A stretch of 64,000 nucleotides of DNA from Promethearchaeota archaeon. Lineage in GTDB: Archaea; Asgardarchaeota; Lokiarchaeia; Sigyniarchaeales; SOKP01. The notes below the pieces were generated by a model that worked only from the letters and a program-made list of their open reading frames with translations, had not been told where the DNA came from and did not search any database. This document shows, in pieces, positions 1 through 62,529 of this stretch (position 1 is its first letter; each line of letters opens with the position of its first letter). The position numbers were made by a program, and so were the translations under genes. The stretch is from contig JAUVNS010000004.1 in the NCBI GenBank assembly GCA_030599585.1, forward strand, positions 192,001-256,000, given 5' to 3'.

Positions 1-3000
1 TTGGAACGCTATGAATGTAGAGAATAGAATAATATTCTTTGATTTTTTTTCTATTGTGCGATTTAAAAAGCCATTTAATAGAAACATGAGTAATGAAAAG
101 ACAGAAAGAAAGAAACTAAATGAAGGAATTCCAATTAGTAATGGGTTGTAAGCTAGTAGAAAGTCAGTCAATAACAGAGAAAGGTAAAAACTAATCACAA
201 GAAAAATAATATTCAGTAAAATTGCTTGTAATTGATTTTTAATTTCCTTTATTCTATTAGCATCGTATTTAGTTATTACTTCGATATAGTAAGATAAGTA
301 ATGTAATGTATAGAACTGTAATATCAAGAATATAACTAAATTTAAAACAAATAATGTGGCATCATTTCCTGTAAGTTGGGCAAAGTAAATTAATCCACCA
401 ATCGTTATAACAAGAAATGCTATGATATTTAACAAATAAGTGATCTTTTCTATAGTTCTCTTTAAAACATGGATGTCTAATAAAATGGAGAGGAAAAATA
501 TGAAAACGGATAACAATATAGCTCCATATAAGTATAAGCTAATATCTATTAACTCCTGGATCAATCCAAAGCTCAACAAACCAAGTGCAAAATAGGATAC
601 TAATGACAGAATTGAATCAAATTTCGTCATACCATAATCTTTTTCAGGCTGTTGTTCTTCGATTTTCTTCATAAATAAGAATCTTGCTACCGAAAAGTAA
701 GCAGAATAAATCAAAAGTGAAAGTAGAACTATAAAATAGAGCGAATGAAATAATTCTATCAATAGTATAAACTGTAAAGTTAATAATGTTAATGCTAAAG
801 GAGAAATATACCATAGAATAAAACGGTATTCATATAATGCTGATCTAAGAATAATCAAATTGACAGTTATGAATATCGCAGACACTAAAAAGATAGATCC
901 AGGGAGGAAAATATAAACCAAGAACGATAAGGTAAGTGATATTCCAATCGATAAAATTGATAGTGGAAATATTTTTTTAAGAGGTAATATCATTCGAAAT
1001 TTATTAAATACAAGAGTGGAACCGCCAAAAACCGTAATTGCTAAAGATAAAGCGATGAACTCGATATTAGGAATCAATATGAATGTGTTGTAGGTAAAAA
1101 AGGAGAAATTTACGACTAATATTGATGAGATTATAATGTTAAAAAAAGTCCTGCTGAGCTTAAGGAGTCTTGAAGAAAATAGACTGAAAGCGAGTATTAT
1201 AAAAGAGAGGTTAATAGATATAAAGAAATTTAGAATTATTGAATTAATGATCAAGAAAATTGTTAAAAAGATACCTGTCAGAGAAAGAAAATAGGAACTT
1301 ACAAGTAAAATGTTTTTTAAATTTTTTAAATTGGGGAAAAATGATAAAATGACGAAAAAGAATCCCAATACAATTAAATTGATTGATAAGTTAATTTCCA
1401 AGGGTAACAAGATTACTTGGAATAATATAACGAGGAAGCTTACATTTATAAAAATGTAAAATAGCCATAATAGAGTAATGATTTTCCACATTTTCATTCT
1501 ATAAAACACCGGCATTAGAAGAGATACTGCGAAAACAAAAAACACTATATTAGTAATTACTAGATTTTCAGTAAAAACATTTTGACTAAACCAGTATAAG
1601 AAGAACAAGCTAAAACTCCAAACTATTAGTAGAATCCTGGAGAAATGTTTTTTTATCCATGTGTACCAAAAGGGTAGAGAAAGCAAAACACAAATTGTGA
1701 AAGATATTATAAATGAACCACTAATTTGAATCCCAAAGAAATTTAATGCGTTCGTATAAATATTAACATCGGTAAAACTCTCGTTGATGATATAAAAATT
1801 TACAAAGGGAACTATAATCCATAACCTCCACCCCGTTTTCCATATTACCCAAGAGAATTTCCAGTAGTAAAAGCCTACTGATAAGTAGAAAAGAAGGACG
1901 CCAATATTGATGGTTATAATAAACAGGAAAGGGTCCCATATAGGTAGATTAAAAAAGACATTCAAGAAAAAATACATAAAAGTTGGAATAGAAAGAATAT
2001 AGGATGAAAAAGCGATATAAAAAGAAAGGCGCCTGAAATTTTCTGGCGCTTTATTATAAGTCCATACATAACTAATACTGGTAACGCTTAAAGTTAGTGT
2101 AAATGTCAGTATTGGATTAAATTCTATAAAAAATGGATTATTAAACAGAATATTATAAGACAGGAAACTAATGAGGTTAAATACCATAAGCAAAACACCA
2201 GGTCGGATGAACCACTTGTAAATATCATTTTTTTGCTTGTAGTAGAAATTCCCTGTTAATAATAAAAATAGGAATAGAGAGAAAGTAATGATATATATTA
2301 AAGGAATTATGGTATTGTAGAGTAGTAAAAGAAAGGTTATAATCGATATTAAAGTATATAAAGTGAATTTTTCGATTACATTTACATTCCGTATGTTTAA
2401 CACAATAGAAAAGAATAAGACAATCATTAACGAAAGACTGAAATAAAAAAGATAAAAAGCGAAGTCGAGTAGATCGAATGAAGGAATAAACATATAAAAA
2501 TTCAGTGTGGTAATCAATTTTACTAAAATTAACAAGGTAAGCGAGAAGTAGCTAATAATTCGAAATATAAAATTGCGATTCCGATTGGAAATGAAGAAAT
2601 AAATCATAATAATAAAAAATACATAAGCAAAATATTCGAAAACACCCGGAAATATAGAAAAGAAAGTAAATAGCAGTAGTGATGGACCTAGCAATATTCT
2701 TATTAGTTTGAATTCAGCCACATTCTCAATTCTATCATTGTATTTAACCAGATAGTAATTGATTAACGAATAAATACCACAGAATAAAATTAAAAGTCGT
2801 AGTGGTTGATTTGTGCTGTAAAATGGAAACATTTGACTGGAGTTCCAATATAATTCACTGAATATAATAATTAAAGTAAAATAGAACGTGTAATAGATGA
2901 GTCTTTTGTAAAGTGTTAGAGAATCATCAGAGATAAAAAAGTTATTTCTCAGATAATAAATAGTAATAGGACTGAGGAAGGTTAGAATTAGTAAAGGTAA

Positions 3001-6000
3001 ACCAATCCTTTGTATAAGAGATAACTGGGCAGGAAATATCAAAATATAGAAACACAATAGAAATTTAATTATTAACCATGCGGATATATCAAAAACCCAT
3101 CTGAGTCTCGAAAATTCAATTTCGAATAAGTTACGACTGATTGTTGATACTATTAGGTAAGTTAACAGAAAGATTCCAACATTTGTAGTTAATGTTAATA
3201 GTAGGGACTCTTGAAGCTGAAGAAGTGAATAAATGATATTAAATGGAACCAGAAAAATAGTTAGCGAAGCTATCATAAATTCGATGAAAAAATAAGATAT
3301 GTTTTTAGTATATTCGTATATTTTGTAGATTCTGTAATAATCATATTTAGTAAGATCGTTTTCAAATATCCTCTGCTTGAGATTTTCAAGCGGAATTAAG
3401 ATAACCAGATTTAAAATTAAAAATAATAACGAAGAACAACTGATATTGAATCCAATATTAATAGTGAAAGAGTTTAAAACCACAAAAATCTTCGTAGATA
3501 TAACAAGAGATAAAACAACCCAAGTGATAATCTGGCAAGTTTTAATAGAAACGAAATAGGATTCTTTAAGTTTAGATTTATCAAAAAGAGATTCTAGAAA
3601 AACTAAAAATCCAAAAACTAAAGCAATAACCGAACTATTGATTATATAATAATCTACAGCTATACCTAATCTAATAAAATCTAATCCTATTACATAAGGA
3701 AGCGAAGTAATTAATCCCGATATGACTAAACTGTCTATTGTTAACAATTTCTGCACAAAACTGGTGAAAATATTCTTATTTAAGGAATGGAGTAGAGGTA
3801 ATAACAGTGTTATACTTAAGATCAGCAAAGGAATAATATATTTGTAAACCGAAGTAGGTATAAACAAATATAGATAAAATGAGATGAGGATACTAGTGAA
3901 AAACAAACTTACTATATTAAACCCTGTCGAAATTTTTTCTGAAAATAGAATTCTCTTCTTGGTAAAAAAATTAATAATCAAGCTAATAAGAACGATGGAT
4001 ATATATGCTGAAAAAATTAGGTCCAAATGAAGTTGTTGATTAAAGAATGCGAACATTATGAAGAAAACTTCTAACATTATTAAATAACTAATGTAATTTT
4101 CAATAACAATAATTTTTTCGTGAGAAATTATATCTATTTTATCTCCCAATTTCAAAATGTAGAAACACGCAATAGATATGTAAAGTATATTAAGCACGAT
4201 TAACGAATTTAAGATTGTTAAAAATAAATCAGCAATTAAATAGAAGTTTAATATAAAGACAGACAGAACTATGATGCTGGAGCAAAGAAAATGATAGATT
4301 AGGAAGAATTTTTTATTTATTACATTTTTTTTGTGGAGATAATAAATGGGAATATATGAGAGGACGCTAACTAAAATAAGAGGTATAAAAAATCCGAAGA
4401 ACGAACCCCAAGTGTAAAACGCACTATAATATCCCACCAAAAATAAACCTAAATATAACGTAAATGAATTTAATATCAAGGTTAGGAGCTTAGGAAAGAG
4501 TTTATGTTCTTTTGAATCCGAATACACAATTAGACTCATTACCGTAACAGATAAAAACAAGGATATAAGTAAGTCTAATTCCAAATAAATCAGGAAAAAT
4601 GTAATAAGTATGGCAAAAACTTCGAATACAATGGGATAAGATAGGATGTGTAAAAGAGATTTAGATCGTGATTCTTTGAGCATTCTAATTTTCTTCCCAT
4701 ATGAAATTAGGATTATCAAACAAATGGATATAAACAGTAAGTTAAGGATCGTACCAATAATTAGATGTGCGCTGAAGTATATTACAATTATATAAAAATT
4801 CAAAACGAAAAACAAAAACATGAGCAACCATGAGGAACCATAAGTGTAAATTGCGATGATTTTAGGTTTTAATAATTTTTCACTATATAAATAATAAATT
4901 GGAGCAAAAATCAAGAAGCAAAATACAATCGGTGTGATTAAATAAACAATGAAATCACTTATATTTGCGTTTAAGAAGTAAAACCCCGTAATCACTATAC
5001 TAATAATCAGGATAAGTAATGTCCAAGTTATTATTACTTTTCTAGGAATAAATTTTACATTCGGAGGAAAAAGATTAAAAATGATGCCAATAACGCAACA
5101 AGAAAGGAATAAAGCAAGAAATCCGTCCAAAATAAATAGAATTCTGAATACCGCATAAAATAATAAGAATACTTCAATTAAAAGAGCAAAACTATCAACT
5201 CTAATTATAAAATTGAAAGTAGAATCTTTAACTTTTTTTAGATACTGTCCAAATTTAAGGTTTGCTAAACTAAAAACTGACAAATAAGCCAGATCTAAAA
5301 GCAGAATCACAAAATTATTCCAAAAAATTATGAATATTGTAAAAAAAATCGAGAGTAGTAAAAACCAAAAAGCATAATAGCTATAATTCAAGCTGATTTC
5401 TCGAGAGAATATGTGAATACTATAGTTGAGAAGCACGAATAGTAGGAAAATTATTGGAACTATAATTGCAGATAAAATTAGTTCTCCTTGAAATACCTCA
5501 AGAATTCCAGATGCTAGATTTTTAATATTAACTAATGCAAACCAAGTTATTTCTAATAGTAAAAAGACGATCACGATACAATAGTTAAAAAACTTCCAAG
5601 GTTTATCGTATAACCGAATCCGAGCAAACGAAAAATAAAACGACAATAATGTTATTGCTAAGACGATAAAAGTGTGAATTAATACATTGGAGATAAAACG
5701 TACACTTGGATCTATAATGAACTGTAGATATACAAATTCGATTACAGGGAAGAAAAGATATAAAATCATTGTAAAACTCGCAACAACAAGAAGAGTTTGA
5801 ATAATTAGTACCGTTTTTTCTTGAAAGTACTTAAGCTTCTCAAAAACTTGAAATATTATATATGTAGATAGTGAGAGTAAAAGAAATTGAATTAAAAGAA
5901 ACTGAACATTAAAAAACGTTATGCTCGGAAATGGCAAGATCCAAAAGATTACGATGATTGCCACCCCTAAGCTATTAATTAGATATATAAATCTGCCGTA

Positions 6001-6207
6001 AAGAATAGTGATAAAGTTCGATTTTTCTTCGTAATAGGTAAGAATAGAAATTATTGGTAATGTTATAATACCGATTAAAGAAATATCATTTAGCAATGAA
6101 ATTGAGAGGAATAGAAGAATTAAACTGACTGAGACAATAAAGTTTAGCTTTACATAGGTTTGAATATCACCAACATCAACTTCTTCAGCATTGTTAGGAC
6201 TCGTCAA
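1..6207 (-). CDS. Giant polytopic membrane protein (>2069 aa, C-terminus beyond left edge) with 184-aa internal repeats
   Basis: TTG at 6207 after AGGAGGT SD; reads MTSPNNAEEVDVGDIQTYVKLNFIVSVSLILLF... and still open at base 1 (...KNIILFSTFIAFQ). I translated the N-terminal ~45% and the last codons by hand; absence from the ORF track is consistent with no in-frame stop inside the window. Continuous hydrophobic segments. Confidence 0.9.
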   Translation of the reverse strand, partial: MTSPNNAEEVDVGDIQTYVKLNFIVSVSLILLFLSISLLNDISLIGIITLPIISILTYYEEKSNFITILYGRFIYLINSLGVAIIVIFWILPFPSITFFNVQFLLIQFLLLSLSTYIIFQVFEKLKYFQEKTVLIIQTLLVVASFTMILYLFFPVIEFVYLQFIIDPSVRFISNVLIHTFIVLAITLLSFYFSFARIRLYDKPWKFFNYCIVIVFLLLEITWFALVNIKNLASGILEVFQGELILSAIIVPIIFLLFVLLNYSIHIFSREISLNYSYYAFWFLLLSIFFTIFIIFWNNFVILLLDLAYLSVFSLANLKFGQYLKKVKDSTFNFIIRVDSFALLIEVFLLFYAVFRILFILDGFLALFLSCCVIGIIFNLFPPNVKFIPRKVIITWTLLILIISIVITGFYFLNANISDFIVYLITPIVFCFLIFAPIYYLYSEKLLKPKIIAIYTYGSSWLLMFLFFVLNFYIIVIYFSAHLIIGTILNLLFISICLIILISYGKKIRMLKESRSKSLLHILSYPIVFEVFAILITFFLIYLELDLLISLFLSVTVMSLIVYSDSKEHKLFPKLLTLILNSFTLYLGLFLVGYYSAFYTWGSFFGFFIPLILVSVLSYIPIYYLHKKNVINKKFFLIYHFLCSSIIVLSVFILNFYLIADLFLTILNSLIVLNILYISIACFYILKLGDKIDIISHEKIIVIENYISYLIMLEVFFIMFAFFNQQLHLDLIFSAYISIVLISLIINFFTKKRILFSEKISTGFNIVSLFFTSILISFYLYLFIPTSVYKYIIPLLILSITLLLPLLHSLNKNIFTSFVQKLLTIDSLVISGLITSLPYVIGLDFIRLGIAVDYYIINSSVIALVFGFLVFLESLFDKSKLKESYFVSIKTCQIITWVVLSLVISTKIFVVLNSFTINIGFNISCSSLLFLILNLVILIPLENLKQRIFENDLTKYDYYRIYKIYEYTKNISYFFIEFMIASLTIFLVPFNIIYSLLQLQESLLLTLTTNVGIFLLTYLIVSTISRNLFEIEFSRLRWVFDISAWLIIKFLLCFYILIFPAQLSLIQRIGLPLLILTFLSPITIYYLRNNFFISDDSLTLYKRLIYYTFYFTLIIIFSELYWNSSQMFPFYSTNQPLRLLILFCGIYSLINYYLVKYNDRIENVAEFKLIRILLGPSLLLFTFFSIFPGVFEYFAYVFFIIMIYFFISNRNRNFIFRIISYFSLTLLILVKLITTLNFYMFIPSFDLLDFAFYLFYFSLSLMIVLFFSIVLNIRNVNVIEKFTLYTLISIITFLLLLYNTIIPLIYIITFSLFLFLLLTGNFYYKQKNDIYKWFIRPGVLLMVFNLISFLSYNILFNNPFFIEFNPILTFTLTLSVTSISYVWTYNKAPENFRRLSFYIAFSSYILSIPTFMYFFLNVFFNLPIWDPFLFIITINIGVLLFYLSVGFYYWKFSWVIWKTGWRLWIIVPFVNFYIINESFTDVNIYTNALNFFGIQISGSFIISFTICVLLSLPFWYTWIKKHFSRILLIVWSFSLFFLYWFSQNVFTENLVITNIVFFVFAVSLLMPVFYRMKMWKIITLLWLFYIFINVSFLVILFQVILLPLEINLSINLIVLGFFFVILSFFPNLKNLKNILLVSSYFLSLTGIFLTIFLIINSIILNFFISINLSFIILAFSLFSSRLLKLSRTFFNIIISSILVVNFSFFTYNTFILIPNIEFIALSLAITVFGGSTLVFNKFRMILPLKKIFPLSILSIGISLTLSFLVYIFLPGSIFLVSAIFITVNLIILRSALYEYRFILWYISPLALTLLTLQFILLIELFHSLYFIVLLSLLIYSAYFSVARFLFMKKIEEQQPEKDYGMTKFDSILSLVSYFALGLLSFGLIQELIDISLYLYGAILLSVFIFFLSILLDIHVLKRTIEKITYLLNIIAFLVITIGGLIYFAQLTGNDATLFVLNLVIFLILQFYTLHYLSYYIEVITKYDANRIKEIKNQLQAILLNIIFLVISFYLSLLLTDFLLAYNPLLIGIPSFSFFLSVFSLLMFLLNGFLNRTIEKKSKNIILFSTFIAFQ

Positions 6208-8816: not shown

Positions 8817-8897
8817 ATGAATTTTTCGCGGCATAATACTGATTCATGGGTTGGCTGTAATAAGAAGGCCATTATTCCCTTAGTAACAGTATTATAA
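8817..8897 (+). CDS. Candidate leader peptide 1 (26 aa, MNFSRHNTDSWVGCNKKAIIPLVTVL)
   Basis: ATG ~30 nt after TATA-like TTTATTA (8783); Ile/Leu/Val-rich 3' end; stop abuts a 13-bp hairpin; architecture repeated at 9448. Confidence 0.55.
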   Translation: MNFSRHNTDSWVGCNKKAIIPLVTVL

Positions 8898-9045: not shown

Positions 9046-9222
9046 TTGGCAGGCAAAATAGGTCCTGAATCAATATTGGAGTATTATCAAGATTGGAATT
9101 CAGATCTGGCCCCTATCATGATGTCATTTGATCTCTCAGATGCCTATCCGGGTCAAATTGAAAGCGAGGACCAAGAAAAAATGGCTTATCTGAGAAAAAA
9201 ATATCAAAAAATATCAAAATAA
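9046..9222 (+). CDS. Small acidic protein (58 aa), related to 9681..9860
   Basis: GGAGGTGA SD then TTG at 9046 (in frame with track ORF 9028); DLSDAYPGQIESED motif; U-tract after stop. Confidence 0.75.
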   Translation: MAGKIGPESILEYYQDWNSDLAPIMMSFDLSDAYPGQIESEDQEKMAYLRKKYQKISK

Positions 9223-9447: not shown

Positions 9448-9540
9448 ATGATCTTAAATAATGCTACTAAATTTTCATTTGTAAAAGCTATAAGCCTTTT
9501 ATTAGGTGTGGCAGTAGTAGTATTATTATTATTATTATAA
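9448..9540 (+). CDS. Candidate leader peptide 2 (30 aa, MILNNATKFSFVKAISLLLGVAVVVLLLLL)
   Basis: ATG at leaderless distance from TATA; ends GTA GTA GTA TTA TTA TTA TTA TTA TAA; stop abuts hairpin. Confidence 0.62.
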   Translation: MILNNATKFSFVKAISLLLGVAVVVLLLLL

Positions 9541-9680: not shown

Positions 9681-9860
9681 ATGGAAAAAGAAGTTCTTGA
9701 CGAAATTGAAAGTCAAATTGCCTTAGAAAACAGTATAATTCAAATAAAGGGAGAAAACAAACACGCAAATAAAAATATCTTTTGGAAATACCTAGATTAT
9801 TCAAACTGGGTTCCAGGAGAAATTGAAATTGAAGAAGAAATTAAGAAAGACTATATTTGA
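9681..9860 (+). CDS. Small acidic protein (59 aa, MEKEVLDEIESQ...DYSNWVPGEIEIEEEIKKDYI)
   Basis: GGAGGTGAAAAA-ATG; one codon below the ORF-track cutoff; shares DxSxxxPG[QE]IExE with 9046 ORF. Confidence 0.75.
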   Translation: MEKEVLDEIESQIALENSIIQIKGENKHANKNIFWKYLDYSNWVPGEIEIEEEIKKDYI

Positions 9861-16188: not shown

Positions 16189-16327
16189 ATTCTAAAATAC
16201 GGTGCTTTCTTAAAAGTTTTAATATTCACTACCGAATTTTATTTAATATCATTGATATTCATGAGTAATAACTAAAATACAATATTTTTTTTTAATAGTA
16301 ATATAAGAGAAAAAAAAGAGAAGAAAA

Positions 16328-16426
16328 AGCCTCCGGTGGGACTTGAACCCACGACCGGCTGATTACAAATGCAGCAGATTAAAATATTAATCTGTGTCAG
16401 CTGCTCTACCGCTGAGCCACGGAGGC
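16328..16426 (-). tRNA. tRNA-Thr(UGU) with 27-nt intron (16369-16395) at non-canonical position 32/33
   Basis: GCCTCCG acceptor stem, GCTC/GAGC D arm, GGTTCAAGTCC T arm; removing the intron gives anticodon arm GCTGA-CTTGTAA-TCAGC; CCA not encoded. Confidence 0.95.
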
Positions 16427-54613: not shown

Positions 54614-54904
54614 TTAACCAGGATAATCATTTTTGGATCCCATCAGAGTGGTTGTTTCTTCGATCCATTTAGATAGGTCTTTATCAATTCGACAAAAGGT
54701 AACAATTTGGTCTAAATCCTTAAGTTTATTAAACGAACATTCTACGATCACATCCCAGGCACCATAAAGCGGAGTGGCATATGTAATCTTCCAATCCTCT
54801 TCTAGTTCTGTTGATTTTAGACCTTGTAGTTTATCTACAACCTTCCACTCAGTACCAATTACTTTTAATCTTATTAATATATACCCACGATAATACATTT
54901 TCAT
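54614..54904 (-). CDS. Stand-alone Lrp/AsnC ligand-binding (RAM) domain protein
   Basis: GYILI...LYGAWDVIV...IEETTTL, no HTH; AGGTGA SD 16 nt after argG. Confidence 0.8.
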   Translation of the reverse strand: MKMYYRGYILIRLKVIGTEWKVVDKLQGLKSTELEEDWKITYATPLYGAWDVIVECSFNKLKDLDQIVTFCRIDKDLSKWIEETTTLMGSKNDYPG

Positions 54905-54920: not shown

Positions 54921-56237
54921 TTATTTTTTAACAAATTTATTTTTTCTTATATACTCGTAATTTAATTTTGTTGCTTGAGAATTTTTTTTTAACTTCTCTA
55001 TTGAATTAATTGTGTTTTTGACTTGAAATCCAATCTCACTTTGTAAACCCCATAAAGGTATAAACCCATAACTATATTTTTGATTAAAATTACTGTTCGT
55101 ATCGTAAGTCGCCAAATTTAAATCATATAACCCATAAGGAGATTCTCTGGAAACAACAGTAGCACTCCCTTTATATAATTTCAATTTTACATTGCCGGTC
55201 ACTTTTTGATTAACAACGTTAATGAAAGATTCTAATGCGTCTCTTAATGGGTCGACCCATAAGCCCTCATAAATTAATTCGGTCCATCTTTGATCAACAA
55301 TAGTTTTAAATGAATTTTCATGTTTTGTACATACAAATTTTTCAAGATCTTTATGAGCTTTAATTAAAATTGAAGCTGCAGGAACTTCATATACTTCTCG
55401 TGATTTTAATCCAATTGCGCGATCTTCCATATGGTTGACCCTTCCTATTCCATGTTTACAACCAATATTATGCAAATTTCTGATTAATTCAACACTATTA
55501 ATAGTTACACCATTTAAACTGACTGGTACGCCTTTTTCAAAATCAATTTGGATATATTCAGGAGTATCCGGAGCATTTTCTGGTGATGTTGTCCAAGCAT
55601 TACAATCTTCTGGCGGTTCAATTTCAGGATGTTCTAAGATATCACATTCTGCACTCCTTCCAAAAAGATTCTCATCAATACTATATTTTTTATTTTCCTT
55701 TTTAATCGGAATTCCATGGTACTGGGCATATTTTATTTCTTCGTCTCTGCCCATATCCCATTCAATTAAAGGTTGCAATATTTCTATATCAGGAGCATAA
55801 GCTCTTATTGTCACATTAAACCTTATTTGATCATTTCCTTTACCCGTGCATCCATGAGCTATTGTTTGAATTTTCTCCTGCTTTGCTATTTTTATTGCTT
55901 CTATAGCTATTAATGGTCTTCCTATTGCCGTACTTAGAGGATAAATTCCTTGGTATAAACCGTTTGCTTTAATAGTTGGAAAGACAAATTCATTTACAAA
56001 TTTATCTTTTAAATCAATCGTGAAGTGTTTAACTGCACCTAAGTTAGCGGCTTTTTCTTCAATTTCGTCAAATCTGGAAGGATCGGCAAATTCTTGGCCG
56101 AGATCTGCTGTGAAAGTATAAATTTTTGATTTATAATTCTCTTGTAACCACTTTATCATACAAGAAGTATCCAACCCCCCAGAAAACATTAACAATATTT
56201 TCTCATACTCTTCTTTATTAGGTCCTAATTTACTCAT
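54921..56237 (-). CDS. argG: Argininosuccinate synthase
   Basis: FSGGLDTS, YPLSTAIGRP, HGCTGKGNDQIRF, YSIDENLFGRS. Confidence 0.97.
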   Translation of the reverse strand: MSKLGPNKEEYEKILLMFSGGLDTSCMIKWLQENYKSKIYTFTADLGQEFADPSRFDEIEEKAANLGAVKHFTIDLKDKFVNEFVFPTIKANGLYQGIYPLSTAIGRPLIAIEAIKIAKQEKIQTIAHGCTGKGNDQIRFNVTIRAYAPDIEILQPLIEWDMGRDEEIKYAQYHGIPIKKENKKYSIDENLFGRSAECDILEHPEIEPPEDCNAWTTSPENAPDTPEYIQIDFEKGVPVSLNGVTINSVELIRNLHNIGCKHGIGRVNHMEDRAIGLKSREVYEVPAASILIKAHKDLEKFVCTKHENSFKTIVDQRWTELIYEGLWVDPLRDALESFINVVNQKVTGNVKLKLYKGSATVVSRESPYGLYDLNLATYDTNSNFNQKYSYGFIPLWGLQSEIGFQVKNTINSIEKLKKNSQATKLNYEYIRKNKFVKK

Positions 56238-56287
56238 AATTACTCAATTTTTCTCAATTTTTAAATTTTCCTTTAAAAAATCATTTT

Positions 56288-57337
56288 TTAAACAGGAAAC
56301 ATAGGAATTGATTTCAATCCCATATTCTCTCCTAAGTTAAACATTAAATTCATATTTTGAACAGCCTGTCCTGCTGCCCCCTTAACTAAATTATCAATTG
56401 CTCCTATAATAATTATTTTATTGGCACTTTTATTTAATGTAAATCCTATATCACAATAATTTGAACCCTTAATCCATTTTGTTTCAGGAAATACACCTTT
56501 CTTTGTCAAACGAATAAAAAATTCATTCTGATAATATTTTTCGTAGAATTGTTCAATTTCATCGTAACTAAATGAATTCTTGAGATTTCCATAACATGTA
56601 CATAAAATTCCTCGATTCATTGGTATAAGATGCGGCGTGAAAGTTACTGATATCTCATTTCCATATAATTCACTTAGTTGTTGTTCGATTTCTGGTGTAT
56701 GTCGATGAGAATTTACACTGTAGGCTTTTATAGATTCGTTACATTCCGAGAAATGTGTTGTAAGATTTAAAGAACGCCCTGCTCCTGATACTCCTGATTT
56801 TGCATCAATAATTATGCTATCATCCTCTAAAATTCCTTCTTTGATAAGAGGTAGAAGGCACAGTAAAGCACATGTTGGATAACAACCAGGGTTGGCAACT
56901 AATCTTGATTCTTTTATTTGTTTTCTTTTCCATTCACTAAGCCCGTAAACAGCCTGATTCAACAAATTTTTATTATTATGTTTAATCTTATACCACACCT
57001 CATATACTTCTTCAGATTTTAATCGAAAATCGGCACTCAGGTCGATAATCTTCACATTTTTTAAAATGGAATCTGATAATAATTTAGAAGTAACTCCATG
57101 AGGCAAAGATAAAAAAATAACGTCAAGTTGTTTCGCTATAGTTTCGAGTTCATTCTCTTCACATTTCAGTTCGCATATTTTGTCAAAATTTCCATAAATT
57201 GAATTATAAACTTGACTATTGTGTTTATTAGAAGACAATACTTTAATCTCTACTTCAGGATGGTGATATAATATTCTTACTAATTCTTGTCCTGCATATC
57301 CCGTTGCTCCCAATATACCTGCCTTAATCATCCTCAT
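56288..57337 (-). CDS. argC: N-acetyl-gamma-glutamyl-phosphate reductase
   Basis: GATGYAG, IDLSADFRL, ANPGCYPT, DNLVKGAAGQAVQN; start may be 57331. Confidence 0.97.
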   Translation of the reverse strand: MRMIKAGILGATGYAGQELVRILYHHPEVEIKVLSSNKHNSQVYNSIYGNFDKICELKCEENELETIAKQLDVIFLSLPHGVTSKLLSDSILKNVKIIDLSADFRLKSEEVYEVWYKIKHNNKNLLNQAVYGLSEWKRKQIKESRLVANPGCYPTCALLCLLPLIKEGILEDDSIIIDAKSGVSGAGRSLNLTTHFSECNESIKAYSVNSHRHTPEIEQQLSELYGNEISVTFTPHLIPMNRGILCTCYGNLKNSFSYDEIEQFYEKYYQNEFFIRLTKKGVFPETKWIKGSNYCDIGFTLNKSANKIIIIGAIDNLVKGAAGQAVQNMNLMFNLGENMGLKSIPMFPV

Positions 57338-57346
57338 AAACCTCTA

Positions 57347-58540
57347 TTATTTTTGATACTGTTGTAATACTTCATTCAAAATACCTATGCCTTTATCAAT
57401 CTCCTTTTTTCCAATAATCAGAGGTGGGACAAACCTTAAAACATTTTCGCCAGCACCTAATAAGAGTAGACTTTTTTCCATACAATCTTTAACTATATTT
57501 TTGACTGAGCAATTTAATTCAATCCCGAGCATTAAACCTTGTCCCCTTACATCTATTATCATTTCATATTTTTCTTGTAATTCTATTAGCTTAATTTTGA
57601 GGTAAGCTCCTACTTCCTGTACATTTTTAAGAACTCCTCCATATAATAGCTTTTTTAGAATTACTTTGCCTGCAGTACATGCCAAAGGATTACCCCCAAA
57701 AGTAGACGCGTGATCACCTGGTTGCAAAGCATCGGCCTTATTCTGAGTAGCCAACATTGCTCCAATTGGGAAACCACCACCTAACCCTTTCGCTAATGAT
57801 ACTACATCTGGTTTTACATCAAATAATTGATAGGCAAAGAGTTTACCTGTTCTCCCTACTCCACATTGAACCTCATCAAATACAAGGACAATGTCATTCT
57901 TATCGCAAAGAGATCGAACTTTTTCTAGATAAGTCTTCTCAGCAGGATGAATTCCACCCTCTCCTTGTATAGGTTCAATAATAATTGCACACGTGTTTTC
58001 ACTAACTGCCTTCTCTAACTCATTAAAATTATTAAATTCTACGTAGGAAAATCCAGGCAATAACGGATTATATCCTTTTTGATACTTAGTTTGTCCTGTC
58101 GCAGTAACAGTTGCCATCGTTCTTCCATGAAACGATTTTTTCATTGTGATGATTTCATAGCAATTTTCTCCACGAACCTTCTTTCCATATTTCTTACTTA
58201 ACTTTATTGCCGCTTCTACCGCTTCTGCTCCACTATTACAATAAAAAACTTTGTCAAAACAACTGTTTTGAATTAAAATTTCACCTAATTCAATTGAAGG
58301 AGGCATCCAATACAGATTTGAACAATGCTGCAATTTTGCCAATTGAGTAGATATCTCTTTTACATAATCACTATCATTATAACCTAGTACGTTTACAGCT
58401 ATGCCCGCGACAAAATCTAAATACTTCTTTCCATTATTATCCCAAAGATATACTCCATTACCTTTTTCCAAAACAATAGGGAATTGGCTATAGGTGTTCA
58501 TTATAACTTTGGCACCCCTTTCAATCCATTCATTCGTCAT
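57347..58540 (-). CDS. argD: Acetylornithine aminotransferase
   Basis: NSGAEA, SFHGRT, EPIQGEGG, FDEVQCGVGRTG, AKGLGGG, HASTFGGNP. Confidence 0.95.
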   Translation of the reverse strand: MTNEWIERGAKVIMNTYSQFPIVLEKGNGVYLWDNNGKKYLDFVAGIAVNVLGYNDSDYVKEISTQLAKLQHCSNLYWMPPSIELGEILIQNSCFDKVFYCNSGAEAVEAAIKLSKKYGKKVRGENCYEIITMKKSFHGRTMATVTATGQTKYQKGYNPLLPGFSYVEFNNFNELEKAVSENTCAIIIEPIQGEGGIHPAEKTYLEKVRSLCDKNDIVLVFDEVQCGVGRTGKLFAYQLFDVKPDVVSLAKGLGGGFPIGAMLATQNKADALQPGDHASTFGGNPLACTAGKVILKKLLYGGVLKNVQEVGAYLKIKLIELQEKYEMIIDVRGQGLMLGIELNCSVKNIVKDCMEKSLLLLGAGENVLRFVPPLIIGKKEIDKGIGILNEVLQQYQK

Positions 58541-58578
58541 TATTCTTATCTCTTTTTTATTTCATTCTATTTTTGATT

Positions 58579-59442
58579 CTATTTTATAAACATCGTACCT
58601 ATTCCATGTGGAGTAAAAATTTCAAGCAATAAACTATGCTCTACTCGTCCATCGATAATATGGACTGTATTCACCCCATTTTGTATTGCTTCTACGCAAC
58701 ATTTTACTTTAGGAATCATTCCATTAGTGATAATCCCATCCCCTATATAGGATAACGCTTGATCGACATTCATCTCTGAAATTAGCGTTGTATGATCATT
58801 TATATTACTAAATACGCCAGATACATCTGTTAGGAAGACCAATTTTTCAGCATTTAATGATTTTGAAATTGCAGATGCTACATCATCGGCATTGATATTA
58901 TATGTGTTGCCTAAATTATCCTTGCCAATAGGAGCAATCACAGGAATTATGGAATTTTTTAATATATCTTTTAAAAGGCTAGTTTTTACATTTATAACCT
59001 CACCAACGAAACCCAAATCTTTTCCTTCAATTATCTTTTTCTTAGCATCCAATAAATCCCCATCTTTTCCACATAATCCTAAAGCATCTACACCTTGAAG
59101 TTGAATGTCGTTAACAATCCCTTTGTTAACACTACCTGCTAATACCATCTCTACAACTTCCATGGTTTCTTCATCAGTAATTCTAAGTCCGTTGAAAAAT
59201 TTTGGTTCGATACTCAGTTTTTTTAGCATTTTGTTGATTGAATGTCCACCTCCGTGTACTACTATAACATTAATACCAACTAAATTCATGAAAGCAATGT
59301 CTTCAACAAAAGTCTTCTTTAATTCAGCGTTTTTCATTGCACTCCCTCCATATTTTATTATTATCGTTTTTCCAGAAAATTTTTTAATAAACTGGAGTGC
59401 CTCAACTAAAATTTTTACCTGCTCTGTTTTTTCAATAATAAT
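58579..59442 (-). CDS. argB: Acetylglutamate kinase; probable ATT start (59442 or 59439)
   Basis: IKYGGSAM, VHGGG, GLRITD, NINAD, GMIPK; AAGGAGGT SD follows argJ stop; track ATG 59484 lies inside argJ. Confidence 0.93.
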   Translation of the reverse strand: MIIEKTEQVKILVEALQFIKKFSGKTIIIKYGGSAMKNAELKKTFVEDIAFMNLVGINVIVVHGGGHSINKMLKKLSIEPKFFNGLRITDEETMEVVEMVLAGSVNKGIVNDIQLQGVDALGLCGKDGDLLDAKKKIIEGKDLGFVGEVINVKTSLLKDILKNSIIPVIAPIGKDNLGNTYNINADDVASAISKSLNAEKLVFLTDVSGVFSNINDHTTLISEMNVDQALSYIGDGIITNGMIPKVKCCVEAIQNGVNTVHIIDGRVEHSLLLEIFTPHGIGTMFIK

Positions 59443-59452
59443 AAATACCTCC

Positions 59453-60694
59453 TTATGATCTATAATCACCATTAATTCGTACATATTCGTAGCTTAAATC
59501 ACAGCCCCATGCGGTTGCTTCACCAGTACCCTCCTTCAAAAGTAATTCAACTGTAATTTCATTTTCTTTCAAAATTTTTAATGCTAATTCTTCATCAAAT
59601 TGTAGAGGTGTTCCTTCTTGCATGAGCATAATCGAATGAGCACCATTATGAAAATTGATTGAAACTCCTGTAGGATTAAAATTTGCTCCAGAATATCCCA
59701 TGGCTGCTAGAATTCTACCCCAATTAGCATCTTCTCCAAAAAAAGCTGTTTTTACTAAATTTGAAGTAATAACTGATTTGCTCAAGAGTCTAGCATCTTT
59801 TTTTGATGCGGCACCTGAAACTTTTACCTCAATAAATTTCTTAGCACCTTCTCCATCTTTTACAATTTCTTGGGCTAAAAAAAGATTAACTAAATGAAGA
59901 GCTTTCTTAAATAAATAATATTCCTCATTTTCTTCCTTAATTTCTGTATTTCCCCCACATCCATTAGCTAATAGAAGCACTAAGTCATTTGTACTTGTAT
60001 CACCATCTACAGAGATCATATTATATGAGTCATCGACACTTTTTTTCAGAGCTTTATTTAATAACTCTCTTGAAATGTTGATATCCGTAGTAATGAAGGA
60101 AAGCATAGTTGCCATATTGGGATGAATCATTCCAGAACCTTTAGCCATACCTCCAATTCTGACTTTCTTATCGTCGATAGAAAACTCAACTGAAATTTGT
60201 TTTGGATAAGTATCAGTGGTCATAATTGCTTGGGCAGCCAAAAATGCGTCTGAAGTTGTATTTCCCAATTTTTCGTATGTATTATTAATTCCTGCAACTA
60301 TAGTATCAATTGGGAGCGGAACTCCAATTATTCCAGTAGATGCTACCAGAACCTGATTTTTATCTACCCCCAAACAAAATGCTAACTGATTTGCTATTGT
60401 TTCTGTATGTTTAGCCCCAACTTCCCCTGTACAAGCATTTGCATTTCCACTATTAATAACAATTGCTTTTACTCCATTTGGATTTTGAATAAGGTTCTGA
60501 TTCCATAAAATTGAGGACGCTTTAACTACATTCGTCGTAAAAACGCCAACTGCCTTAGCCGGAACTTCACTAAATATCAAAGCTAAGTCTTTTTTGCGCT
60601 CTTTAATTCCAATATGGCTACCAGTAGCACGATATCCCTTTGGACTTGTAATACTTCCACTTAATTTCTTTATACCTGTGTTGTTTATTTCCAT
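59453..60694 (-). CDS. argJ: Ornithine acetyltransferase / glutamate N-acetyltransferase
   Basis: NSGNANACTG, KGSGMIHPNMATML autoproteolysis site, DGDTSTND, DGEGA. Confidence 0.97.
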   Translation of the reverse strand: MEINNTGIKKLSGSITSPKGYRATGSHIGIKERKKDLALIFSEVPAKAVGVFTTNVVKASSILWNQNLIQNPNGVKAIVINSGNANACTGEVGAKHTETIANQLAFCLGVDKNQVLVASTGIIGVPLPIDTIVAGINNTYEKLGNTTSDAFLAAQAIMTTDTYPKQISVEFSIDDKKVRIGGMAKGSGMIHPNMATMLSFITTDINISRELLNKALKKSVDDSYNMISVDGDTSTNDLVLLLANGCGGNTEIKEENEEYYLFKKALHLVNLFLAQEIVKDGEGAKKFIEVKVSGAASKKDARLLSKSVITSNLVKTAFFGEDANWGRILAAMGYSGANFNPTGVSINFHNGAHSIMLMQEGTPLQFDEELALKILKENEITVELLLKEGTGEATAWGCDLSYEYVRINGDYRS

Positions 60695-60723: not shown

Positions 60724-60800
60724 AATATCCTCTTATAAAAAAATAATAAATTAGAAGAAGTGAAGAAAGAAGAATATCTCCTCAATTCTTATTATTATTA
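60724..60800 (-). promoter_or_regulatory. Putative attenuator of arg operon: hairpin + U-run with an alternative pairing
   Basis: minus strand AATAATAagAATT-GAGGAG (60796-60778) can pair with TTCTTC-t-AATT-TATTATT (60759-60742), running into a U-tract to 60737; alternatively GATATTCTTCTT (60778-60767) pairs with AAGAGGATATT (60734-60724). Confidence 0.5.
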
Positions 60801-60805
60801 TAGAA

Positions 60806-60901
60806 TTAAAGCCGGAGCCGTGCCGGTCTGGGATTGTGCGGTGCTTCTAGAAATTGTATACTTACAATTTCATTATTCAAATGAGGATCAAGTGAGATCA
60901 A
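60806..60901 (-). CDS. Candidate arg leader peptide (31 aa, MISLDPHLNNEIVSIQFLEAPHNPRPARLRL)
   Basis: TGGTG SD-like 9 nt before TTG; ends CCC AGA CCG GCA CGG CTC CGG CTT TAA, a GC-rich patch in an AT-rich intergenic region. Confidence 0.6.
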   Translation of the reverse strand: MISLDPHLNNEIVSIQFLEAPHNPRPARLRL

Positions 60902-60943
60902 CCTTCATAACACCAACGCAATATTATTATTAGTATATAGAAG

Positions 60944-60957
60944 TGAGGCTATATAAA
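60944..60957 (-). promoter_or_regulatory. TATA box with GCCTCA element, likely arg operon promoter
   Basis: TTTATATAGCCTCA; matches 9417-9430. Confidence 0.55.
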
Positions 60958-61044: not shown

Positions 61045-62529
61045 TCAGGAGATAAGATTCTTAATTGTTTTTTTCCTAAGAATGGTAGCTTTTCTTATCA
61101 TTTCTAGTCTTTTCAAAAACAAATTGTGTAATTTTTCTTTATTATTTATTAATTTTTGAATGTTAAGTCTGACTTCTTTCTCAGCTGGAGAACCTTGACT
61201 AATTCTTCTTTCTAAACAAAGATCTAATTTTCTTAAGGTTTGAATTATGTTATCTGATATTTTTATTTCCTCATTTATTACATCTAAGATACATTTCTCA
61301 ATTTTTTCTTTATTTAACATATCTTCTGGTTTTTCTGAATTTTTTACTAAAAGTGCGACAATTTTATGTGATTGTCTAAAAGGGATGTTATAATTTTGAA
61401 CTAATAATTCTGCTAAATCTAATGCCAAAATGAAACTCTCATTAACAGCCTTTCTCAAATTTTCTTTATTAATTGATATAGTTGAAAATATTCCCGTAAA
61501 CATTTCAATTATCGAAAGAAGTAACTCGAATGAACTTTCTAATAATGGTTTCAAATCTTGAAAATCTCTAAAATATCCTGTTGGAATTGATTTAACGACC
61601 ATTACGGCATTAAATAGGTTTGATGTAATTTTAGAACTCTTACTCCTAATTAATTCCAGTGTATCGGGATTTTTCTTTTGAGGCATAACACTTGAAACTG
61701 AACAATACGCATTATCTAACTCAATAAAGTTAAATTCGCTTGTAGACCAAATAATCAGATCTTCTGCTATTCTTGAAAAATGAATTGCTAATGAGGAAAG
61801 TCCCATTAAAGTTTCGTATATATAATCTCGCGAGCTAACAGCATCAATAGAATTATAAACAATTCCATTAAAACCTAATAGTTCTGCGGTTCGAAGCCTA
61901 TCGATGCTAATACTTGTTCCTCCAATAGCACATGCTCCAAGAGGGTTCTTATTAACTCTTTTATAAATTTCTTCTATTCTTTCAAGAGATCTTAAAATTT
62001 GTGCAAGATAATTATTGATATAATGTGAAAATACTCCTAGCTGCCCCTTTTGCAGATGAGTATATAATGGCATGTATGTATCAATGTTTTTCTTAGAAAC
62101 ATCAAGTAAAACTTCAATTAATGTGAATAATTCTTTAGTGATATTATTTAATTCCTTTCTTATTTTTAATCTTAAATCAACTGAGATTTGATCATTTCTC
62201 GATCTACCTGTGTGTATTTTTCCGCCTATTTCAATACCAATTTTATCAATAACGCTCTGTTCTATAAAAGGATGAATATCTTCAAAATCTTCGTTTAATT
62301 CAATCTGATTCGTTAATATTTTTTCTCTTATCTCTTCAAGGGAAGTTAAGATCTTTTTGATTTCAATTTTATTAAGCAAATTTTGTTCAAAAAGCATAAT
62401 ATCATGCACTTCCGTTCCTATAATATCTTCTTCAGCAATCCATAAATCCTCTTTTAAAGATGAAATAAACTTCAAGGCTTTTTTATCAAGCGGAATATCT
62501 AATCTTGTTCTAAATAAATTTTTAGGCAT
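61045..62529 (-). CDS. argH: Argininosuccinate lyase
   Basis: FEDIH, HTGRSRNDQ, YTHLQ, SSVMPQKKNPD. Confidence 0.97.
   Translation of the reverse strand: MPKNLFRTRLDIPLDKKALKFISSLKEDLWIAEEDIIGTEVHDIMLFEQNLLNKIEIKKILTSLEEIREKILTNQIELNEDFEDIHPFIEQSVIDKIGIEIGGKIHTGRSRNDQISVDLRLKIRKELNNITKELFTLIEVLLDVSKKNIDTYMPLYTHLQKGQLGVFSHYINNYLAQILRSLERIEEIYKRVNKNPLGACAIGGTSISIDRLRTAELLGFNGIVYNSIDAVSSRDYIYETLMGLSSLAIHFSRIAEDLIIWSTSEFNFIELDNAYCSVSSVMPQKKNPDTLELIRSKSSKITSNLFNAVMVVKSIPTGYFRDFQDLKPLLESSFELLLSIIEMFTGIFSTISINKENLRKAVNESFILALDLAELLVQNYNIPFRQSHKIVALLVKNSEKPEDMLNKEKIEKCILDVINEEIKISDNIIQTLRKLDLCLERRISQGSPAEKEVRLNIQKLINNKEKLHNLFLKRLEMIRKATILRKKTIKNLIS

Follow-up and report, generated by a model that had tools for sequence, protein, structure and literature searches.

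We analyzed a 64,000-nucleotide stretch of DNA, referred to here as the window, from a Promethearchaeota (Loki) genome whose 16S gene is archaeal and whose named close ArgJ relatives are Promethearchaeota or Lokiarchaeota. Its arginine biosynthesis genes lie on the minus strand in the order argH (61045..62529), a 350-nt gap, and argJ (59453..60694, with its start at 60694), followed by the argB-argD-argC-argG block (54921..59484), in which argB occupies 58579-59484, argD 57347-58540, argC 56288-57337, and argG 54921-56237. All of these genes scored above their NCBIfam cut-offs, and the assignment of argJ is additionally backed by a tree. The gap between argH and argJ holds a short upstream open reading frame (uORF) that ends in arginine codons, argJ being the first gene under this leader. 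Since argH lies upstream of the leader's promoter, this last step of the pathway would escape control by the Arg leader; argH itself has no leader and follows an etfA gene at a distance of 70 nt. Directly after argG, a 96-amino-acid standalone protein of the Lrp/AsnC-type ligand-binding-domain kind is encoded (54614-54904, minus strand; atlas score 0.96, no Pfam match), with look-alikes directly upstream of argG in genomes G159, G058, G057, and G060; it is a possible second arginine-linked sensor. At the far end of the window, an ORF of more than 2,000 codons (1-6207, minus strand) runs off the window and has no Pfam match.

ArgJ is scarce in this group, being found in 12 of 161 genomes of the class and 14 of 400 of the phylum, and argG occurs in 54 of the same 161 class genomes, compared with only 12 for argJ. 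Judging from this gene content, most argG-bearing Loki presumably must obtain ornithine by another route or by import. In a quick ArgJ tree, most Loki ArgJ sequences form one group (support 95) that has one bacterial sequence inside and adjoins Defluviitalea-like Bacillota and Melainabacteria. This suggests that the Loki argJ operon was gained by transfer from bacteria, the donor indicated by so quick a tree being indicative only. In bacteria, arginine biosynthesis is usually under the control of ArgR, and an earlier note on this locus, made from the sequence alone, had framed its reading in these terms. That framing does not carry over, since the organism is an archaeon and its 100% complete genome gave no match to the ArgR N-terminal domain (PF01316), for which 8 of 14 controls scored above the cut-off. 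The genome does encode aCPSF1/FttA. Only one tRNA-Arg (UCG) was detected genome-wide; in the window, a tRNA-like gene with an apparent intron (16326-16426, minus strand), probably Thr(UGU), was missed by ARAGORN in both modes.

The leader starts with a TATA-like box (60950..60957), from whose position we infer a transcription start near 60931 and thus a 5' leader of ∼30 nt. Of 11 leaders checked, 10 have a TATA-like element 45 to 63 nt ahead of the uORF start, although such matches come easily in AT-rich DNA. A Shine-Dalgarno (SD)-like TGGTG (60911..60915), whose GGTG core is complementary to the 3' end of the 16S rRNA, precedes the uORF start by 9 nt. The uORF itself (60806..60901) has 31 codons, a TTG start, and a TAA stop, and its arginine codons are confined to positions 25 (AGA), 28 (CGG), and 30 (CGG), forming a cluster over codons 25 to 30 (60812..60829) with Arg28 (60818..60820) as the putative sensor codon. 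The end of the uORF is a patch of 73% GC within a spacer of 26% GC. A U-rich tract with a run of seven U (60737-60743) follows at 60737..60750 and was kept in an alignment of related leaders (A1). The earlier note had described all of these elements, and we found each of them, from the TATA box to argJ, where it had placed them. Three Arg codons among the last ten have a P value of 0.005 among 338 candidate uORFs. Within the window alone no feature of the uORF or of its folds beats chance, and the case rests on conservation. Rfam and covariance-model searches of the leader, including T-box, riboswitch, and Rfam leader families, gave no match, and a genome scan found no paralogues of the Arg leader in the source genome.

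To collect related leaders, we fetched loci by ArgJ similarity only and inspected the upstream region afterwards. The Arg leader was present in eight of the eight other genomes of the family that have argJ, and in three further assemblies found through ArgJ (L131, L134, and L136). Metagenomes were searched with a DNA pattern in which the SD and codons 11 to 17 were set and both the Arg end and the next gene were left free. This yielded 17 related matches, of which 16 run into argJ and 1 stops at a contig edge; seven other matches were discarded as unrelated chance matches. All 25 related leaders examined are open and carry Arg28 or its equivalent (CGG, CGT, CGC, or AGG). This position is arginine in 22 of 22 rows compared (CGG in 15, CGT in 6, CGC in 1), and it is also kept in L131 and, as AGG, in L134. 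Several relatives have a run of three to five Arg where the uORF of the window has Arg25, Arg28, and Arg30.

The reading frame is conserved as well. In-frame stops are absent from 21 aligned rows, compared with 44 and 58 stops in the two other frames; the start alternates between TTG and ATG, and the stop falls at codon 32 in 20 of the 21 rows. Codons 1 to 30 are free of indels in alignment A1, whose flanks contain many, and the only internal deletion, in L136, removes exactly four codons and leaves the frame intact. The SD-like site is invariant in A1, whose metagenome rows were selected on it, and was found in every leader fetched through ArgJ. When the observed differences were scattered at random, the product probability that all ten frames remain open was 2.5e-5 and the probability that Arg28 is retained was 0.003, both of which overstate the case because the loci are kin. 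Arginine accounts for 42 of 96 terminal codons and for 10 of 262 elsewhere in the leaders, a contrast whose independence is inflated by the same kinship, and CGN makes up 31 of the 42 terminal Arg codons versus 38% of Arg codons genome-wide. A profile of the leader reached E<1e-12 only in the source genome and the 8 family genomes, all of which were in its training set. Held out of training, the leader L005 (genome G003, ArgJ 58% identical) outscored all 22,044 non-self start-anchored ORFs of the source genome, and the L134 leader scored more weakly than L005 (46 of 22,045).

Unrelated leaders that end in Arg precede arg genes in L133 and in G047, a genome of another family. The G047 leader (L185:7780-7842, minus strand) has 20 codons, ends with five Arg among six codons, and lies before argG-argJBDC; the gap between argG and argJ of that genome contains another short ORF, which has two Arg codons. 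No leader was found at the arg genes of four Asgard argJ loci (G053, G038, G398, and G399), none was seen upstream of argS, argF, or pyrB in the source genome, and none that was convincing was found upstream of argG in 30 loci of the class. Descent of the leader from a bacterial donor was rejected, given that 81 bacterial argJ loci contain no homologous ORF (best score 3.3, within the null); Arg-ended ORFs at these loci are mixed chance ORFs, and a few of the loci have ARG-box-like sites. The earlier note had proposed comparing argJ upstream regions among relatives, and this comparison bore out its expectation that the coding features would survive sequence drift. Given that Arg28, the frame, and the SD-like site are all kept while the sequence drifts, we count the feature as real and conserved in spite of its insignificance in the window alone, and we judge it very likely that the uORF is translated and senses arginine.

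Other leaders in the genome were sought by ordering 2,759 short upstream ORFs according to how enriched their ends are in an amino acid, leaving gene function aside. A first scan that required an SD missed these sister leaders and was relaxed, the relaxed scan being unguided in its ranking and not in its design. Ranks 1, 6, and 7 were Leu before leuA, His before hisIE, and Leu before leuS, and ranks 20 and 21 were Ile before ileS and Ile before cimA; the Arg leader itself was outside the top 70. Together with a leader of three Trp before trpB2, a TrpB2-like gene with a PALP match, the amino acid of the leader thus matches the downstream gene at six further loci (leuA, leuS, hisIE, ileS, cimA, and trpB2). 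The bodies of the Leu, His, Ile, and Trp leaders are unrelated, with the cognate codons at their ends. Across several genera, 29 of 30 leuA loci have a leader that ends in a Leu run, and in these a stem starts ∼2 to 7 nt from the stop and varies in sequence on both arms. Some further loci have a similar layout. Two uORFs of the window that end in Ile/Leu/Val (8817-8897 and 9448-9540, plus strand) have a stem at the stop and a U-rich loop, as in the layout of leuS, and precede unannotated ORFs of 58 and 59 amino acids (9046-9222 and 9681-9860). Elsewhere in the genome, a 28-codon Ile/Leu-ended leader with a leuS-like stem (L172; G000:C20, upstream of 394582, minus strand) precedes an F420-hydrogenase beta-like gene. 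In the ileS leader (L170; G000:C28), the SD region of the uORF could pair over a long range with the stem behind the stop, being complementary to both its loop and its 3' arm, an extra pairing that is not seen in the Arg leader.

Having considered the uORF, we turned to the RNA that follows it. In the source genome, a long interrupted stem (60743..60801) begins 5 nt after the stop, encloses a U/C-rich loop, and has the distal U-rich tract as its 3' arm. Most Arg leaders, as well as the Leu, His, and Ile leaders, have a stem of this kind whose base lies 0 to 10 nt past the stop, with a U/C-rich loop inside it in most cases. Single-sequence folds in the window are not better than those of shuffled sequences (z of −0.6 to −1.3), and the fold after the stop has a mean z of −2.6 over 23 Arg leaders and −0.9 in the source genome. 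In a 10-row alignment, 88% of stem cells are paired, compared with 49 to 62% when the stem is slid along the rows. Covariation is limited to three pairs with double changes, a count equaled or exceeded in 27 of 500 shuffles, and the RNAalifold consensus on a MAFFT alignment amounts to no more than 4 bp, as a result of misalignment of the AT-rich arms.

We then compared the folds with the position of the ribosome, which in archaea protects 15 to 16 nt from the P-site (PMC7261190), and with the preference of FttA for U-rich RNA at −30 to −36 and for U at −23 from the transcript end (PMC11616081). Opening FttA-footprint windows on the distal U-tract costs 5.7 kcal/mol with the ribosome stalled at the Arg codons versus 2.9 kcal/mol with the ribosome at the stop. 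In 21 of 21 leaders stalling makes the tract harder to open, an effect to which the calculation itself contributes, as an arm that is blocked tends to release its partner. The real 5' arm masks the U-tract better than shuffled arms do (z>1) in 11 of 15 leaders, with a z of 0.7 in the source genome. For the proximal U/C loop, the effect on accessibility is reversed in 15 of 22 leaders.

Our preferred reading, which we hold tentatively and rate somewhat short of even, is that the leader is a ribosome-read arginine gauge for argJBDCG that acts by premature termination through masking of the U-tract. A ribosome translating the uORF while charged tRNA-Arg is short would wait at Arg28 to Arg30, reaching 60802 at most, and would leave the 5' arm of the stem, from 60801, free. 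The long stem could then close over the U-tract and RNA polymerase would read into argJ (ON). With arginine plentiful, the ribosome at the stop would cover ∼60796-60805 and open the base of the stem, and the bare, single-stranded U-tract would permit intrinsic or aCPSF1/FttA termination (OFF), the tract being a putative archaeal termination or FttA signal. The long stem would thus be the antiterminator and the bare U-tract the terminator. Given that the stem is predicted to form in the starved state, which should be ON for a biosynthetic operon, ribosome geometry suggests the opposite of the terminator role that the earlier note had assigned to the hairpin. The output is the weakest step of this model: the proximal loop behaves in the reverse way, and in the leuA leaders the stem comes without a clear U-tract, so that the leaders may not all share a single output.

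The same arginine sensor could also work with a bacterial-style geometry, in which a stop-overlapping hairpin (60780..60811) is the antiterminator and the inner stem (60755-60790), aided by the run of seven U, is a terminator that forms with the ribosome at the stop. The alternative pairing of which the earlier note had spoken does exist. It joins the last codon and stop (60802-60811) to 60780-60789 in a hairpin of 10 bp and −7.5 kcal/mol, it excludes the inner stem in the source genome, and no other fold ranks above it in L002 and L096; moreover, the inner stem is the best-kept helix across leaders. Against this geometry, a pattern scan found no bacterial-type terminator, the inner stem ends 11 nt before the U run, and the leuA stems have no U run behind them. 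The stop-overlapping helix is also weak or absent in the sister genus, in most of which, as in L005, L131, L134, and L136, it is outranked by the long stem. We therefore consider this geometry unlikely. What stands of the attenuator proposed in the earlier note is the Arg-codon sensor for argJBDCG, with cognate leaders before six other genes; the reading of the fold as a terminator is not supported.

A second alternative keeps the sensor and places the output after transcription, with the freed pyrimidine arm covering the argJ ribosome-binding site, by analogy with the mycobacterial poly-Cys leaders, or with the fold setting mRNA stability, by analogy with Salmonella speF. With the ribosome at the stop, the argJ start is ∼4 kcal/mol harder to open in L005, L010, L011, and L136, and the loop of the cimA leader is complementary to the cimA SD. 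Over 22 Arg leaders, however, the mean shift in opening the argJ start region is 0.65 kcal/mol, no higher than the 0.76 kcal/mol obtained with foreign start regions, and it is negative in the source genome, where the long stem ends ∼45 nt before the argJ start. Occlusion of the argJ SD was thus rejected as a general output, and we regard a posttranscriptional mechanism as distinctly unlikely.

A further question is whether the leader is read as codons or as a peptide. The earlier note had offered arrest by the nascent chain as an alternative. In such a mechanism the peptide would respond to free arginine or ornithine inside the exit tunnel by arresting the ribosome, as do AAP, SpeFL, and TnaC. 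In favor of this idea, E11, F17, A20, and P21 are kept among leaders, F17 lies 11 residues before Arg28, which we take to be a tunnel-like spacing, and in L005 codons 2 to 23 by themselves score above every non-self null ORF except one, although 47 bases differ. The pN/pS (dN/dS) of the uORF, however, is 0.60 to 0.76, no lower than in some wrong frames, and we discarded it as proof of selection at the protein level, being weak and not frame specific. In L136 the four codons around E11 are missing, as are both E11 and F17 in L134, the leaders of L133 and G047 encode unrelated peptides that end in Arg, and the sister leaders reach their Leu, His, Ile, or Trp ends through unrelated bodies. The constant feature is Arg near the stop, which, with a dN/dS of only 0.6 to 0.76, favors sensing by decoding speed and makes an arrest peptide improbable. 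Least probable of these readings is a conserved noncoding leader whose GC patch reads as Arg by chance, with control left to a protein such as the standalone Lrp/AsnC-like one behind argG (54614-54904): the weak TTG start, the 4-base SD core, the modest dN/dS, and the insignificance of the uORF on its own would fit it, but base changes, among them one from CGN to AGG, leave the frame, the start, the place of the stop, and Arg28 intact, the sole internal indel is in frame, Rfam has no match, and the amino acid fits the downstream pathway at six other loci.

Leader-peptide attenuation, which requires translation to act on a transcript during its synthesis, is textbook knowledge in bacteria. As in the bacterial attenuators trpL, hisL, leuL, thrL, and pheL of E. 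coli, the leaders described here place a uORF with cognate codons before a biosynthetic operon or an aminoacyl-tRNA synthetase gene, have a helix at the leader's stop codon, and occur as several amino-acid-matched leaders per genome. The Arg leader differs from them in its archaeal promoter and polymerase, in lacking a terminator made of a GC hairpin plus a U run, in packing its sensor codons into the last positions of a 30-codon frame, in its target, arginine biosynthesis, and in having no Rfam or sequence relation to them. It thus appears to work like a bacterial leader-peptide attenuator while standing outside the strict trpL/hisL class, since the hairpin-plus-U terminator was looked for and not found. 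The fungal arginine attenuator peptide (AAP; CPA1/arg-2) is likewise a uORF that controls arginine synthesis. AAP arrests at high arginine through its peptide sequence and blocks scanning, whereas in the Arg leader the Arg codons, and not a fixed peptide, are constant.

Sets of predicted leader-peptide attenuators have been described in Deinococcus deserti (PMC4007540). The poly-Cys short-ORF attenuators of the mycobacterial "ribulon" (bioRxiv 10.1101/834739) share with the leaders reported here the C-terminal sensor codons and the many independent leaders read by pausing. In that system the stalled ribosome frees the SD of the next gene, whereas SD occlusion was unsupported across our loci, and the Arg leader has an SD rather than being leaderless. 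The leader of Salmonella speF (orf34) and its E. coli counterpart SpeFL (PMC6386406) resemble the Arg leader in length (30 to 34 codons), in that pausing at Arg codons alters the RNA fold, and in that the position of the stop matters, but orf34 controls ornithine decarboxylase via Rho and RNase G, and here the target is an archaeal arginine biosynthesis operon under Arg codons clustered at the leader's end. Termination by aCPSF1/FttA (PMC11616081, PMC13675443) uses U-rich RNA as its signal, as proposed here, and the factor is encoded in this genome; these reports describe it for the ends of genes and operons, and we found in them no case in which a leader ribosome gates it. An interplay between FttA and the ribosome in archaea has been put forward as a hypothesis (PMC11616081). 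In the literature that we covered, from which most subscription journals are absent, we found no case of archaeal leader-peptide attenuation.

A wider interpretation, which we offer as possible and with less confidence than the gauge itself, is that Lokiarchaeia use ribosome-read amino acid attenuators genome-wide, of a type peculiar to them, in which a ribosome at the stop codon would open a stem and so hand the U-tract to the CPSF73 homologue aCPSF1/FttA, and that one of these took the place of ArgR at an arg operon obtained from Bacillota. Because the cassette is short, natural, and provided with a single invariant sensor codon, the tightness of archaeal ribosome-RNA polymerase coupling becomes directly testable, and with it the gating of FttA by the ribosome. 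The locus also indicates how an operon gained by horizontal transfer can be regulated by its new host when the original repressor is absent, and it extends amino-acid-sensing uORFs to the closest prokaryotic lineage to eukaryotes. If the model is true, ribosome-gated cleavage-termination would exist in the prokaryotes closest to eukaryotes.
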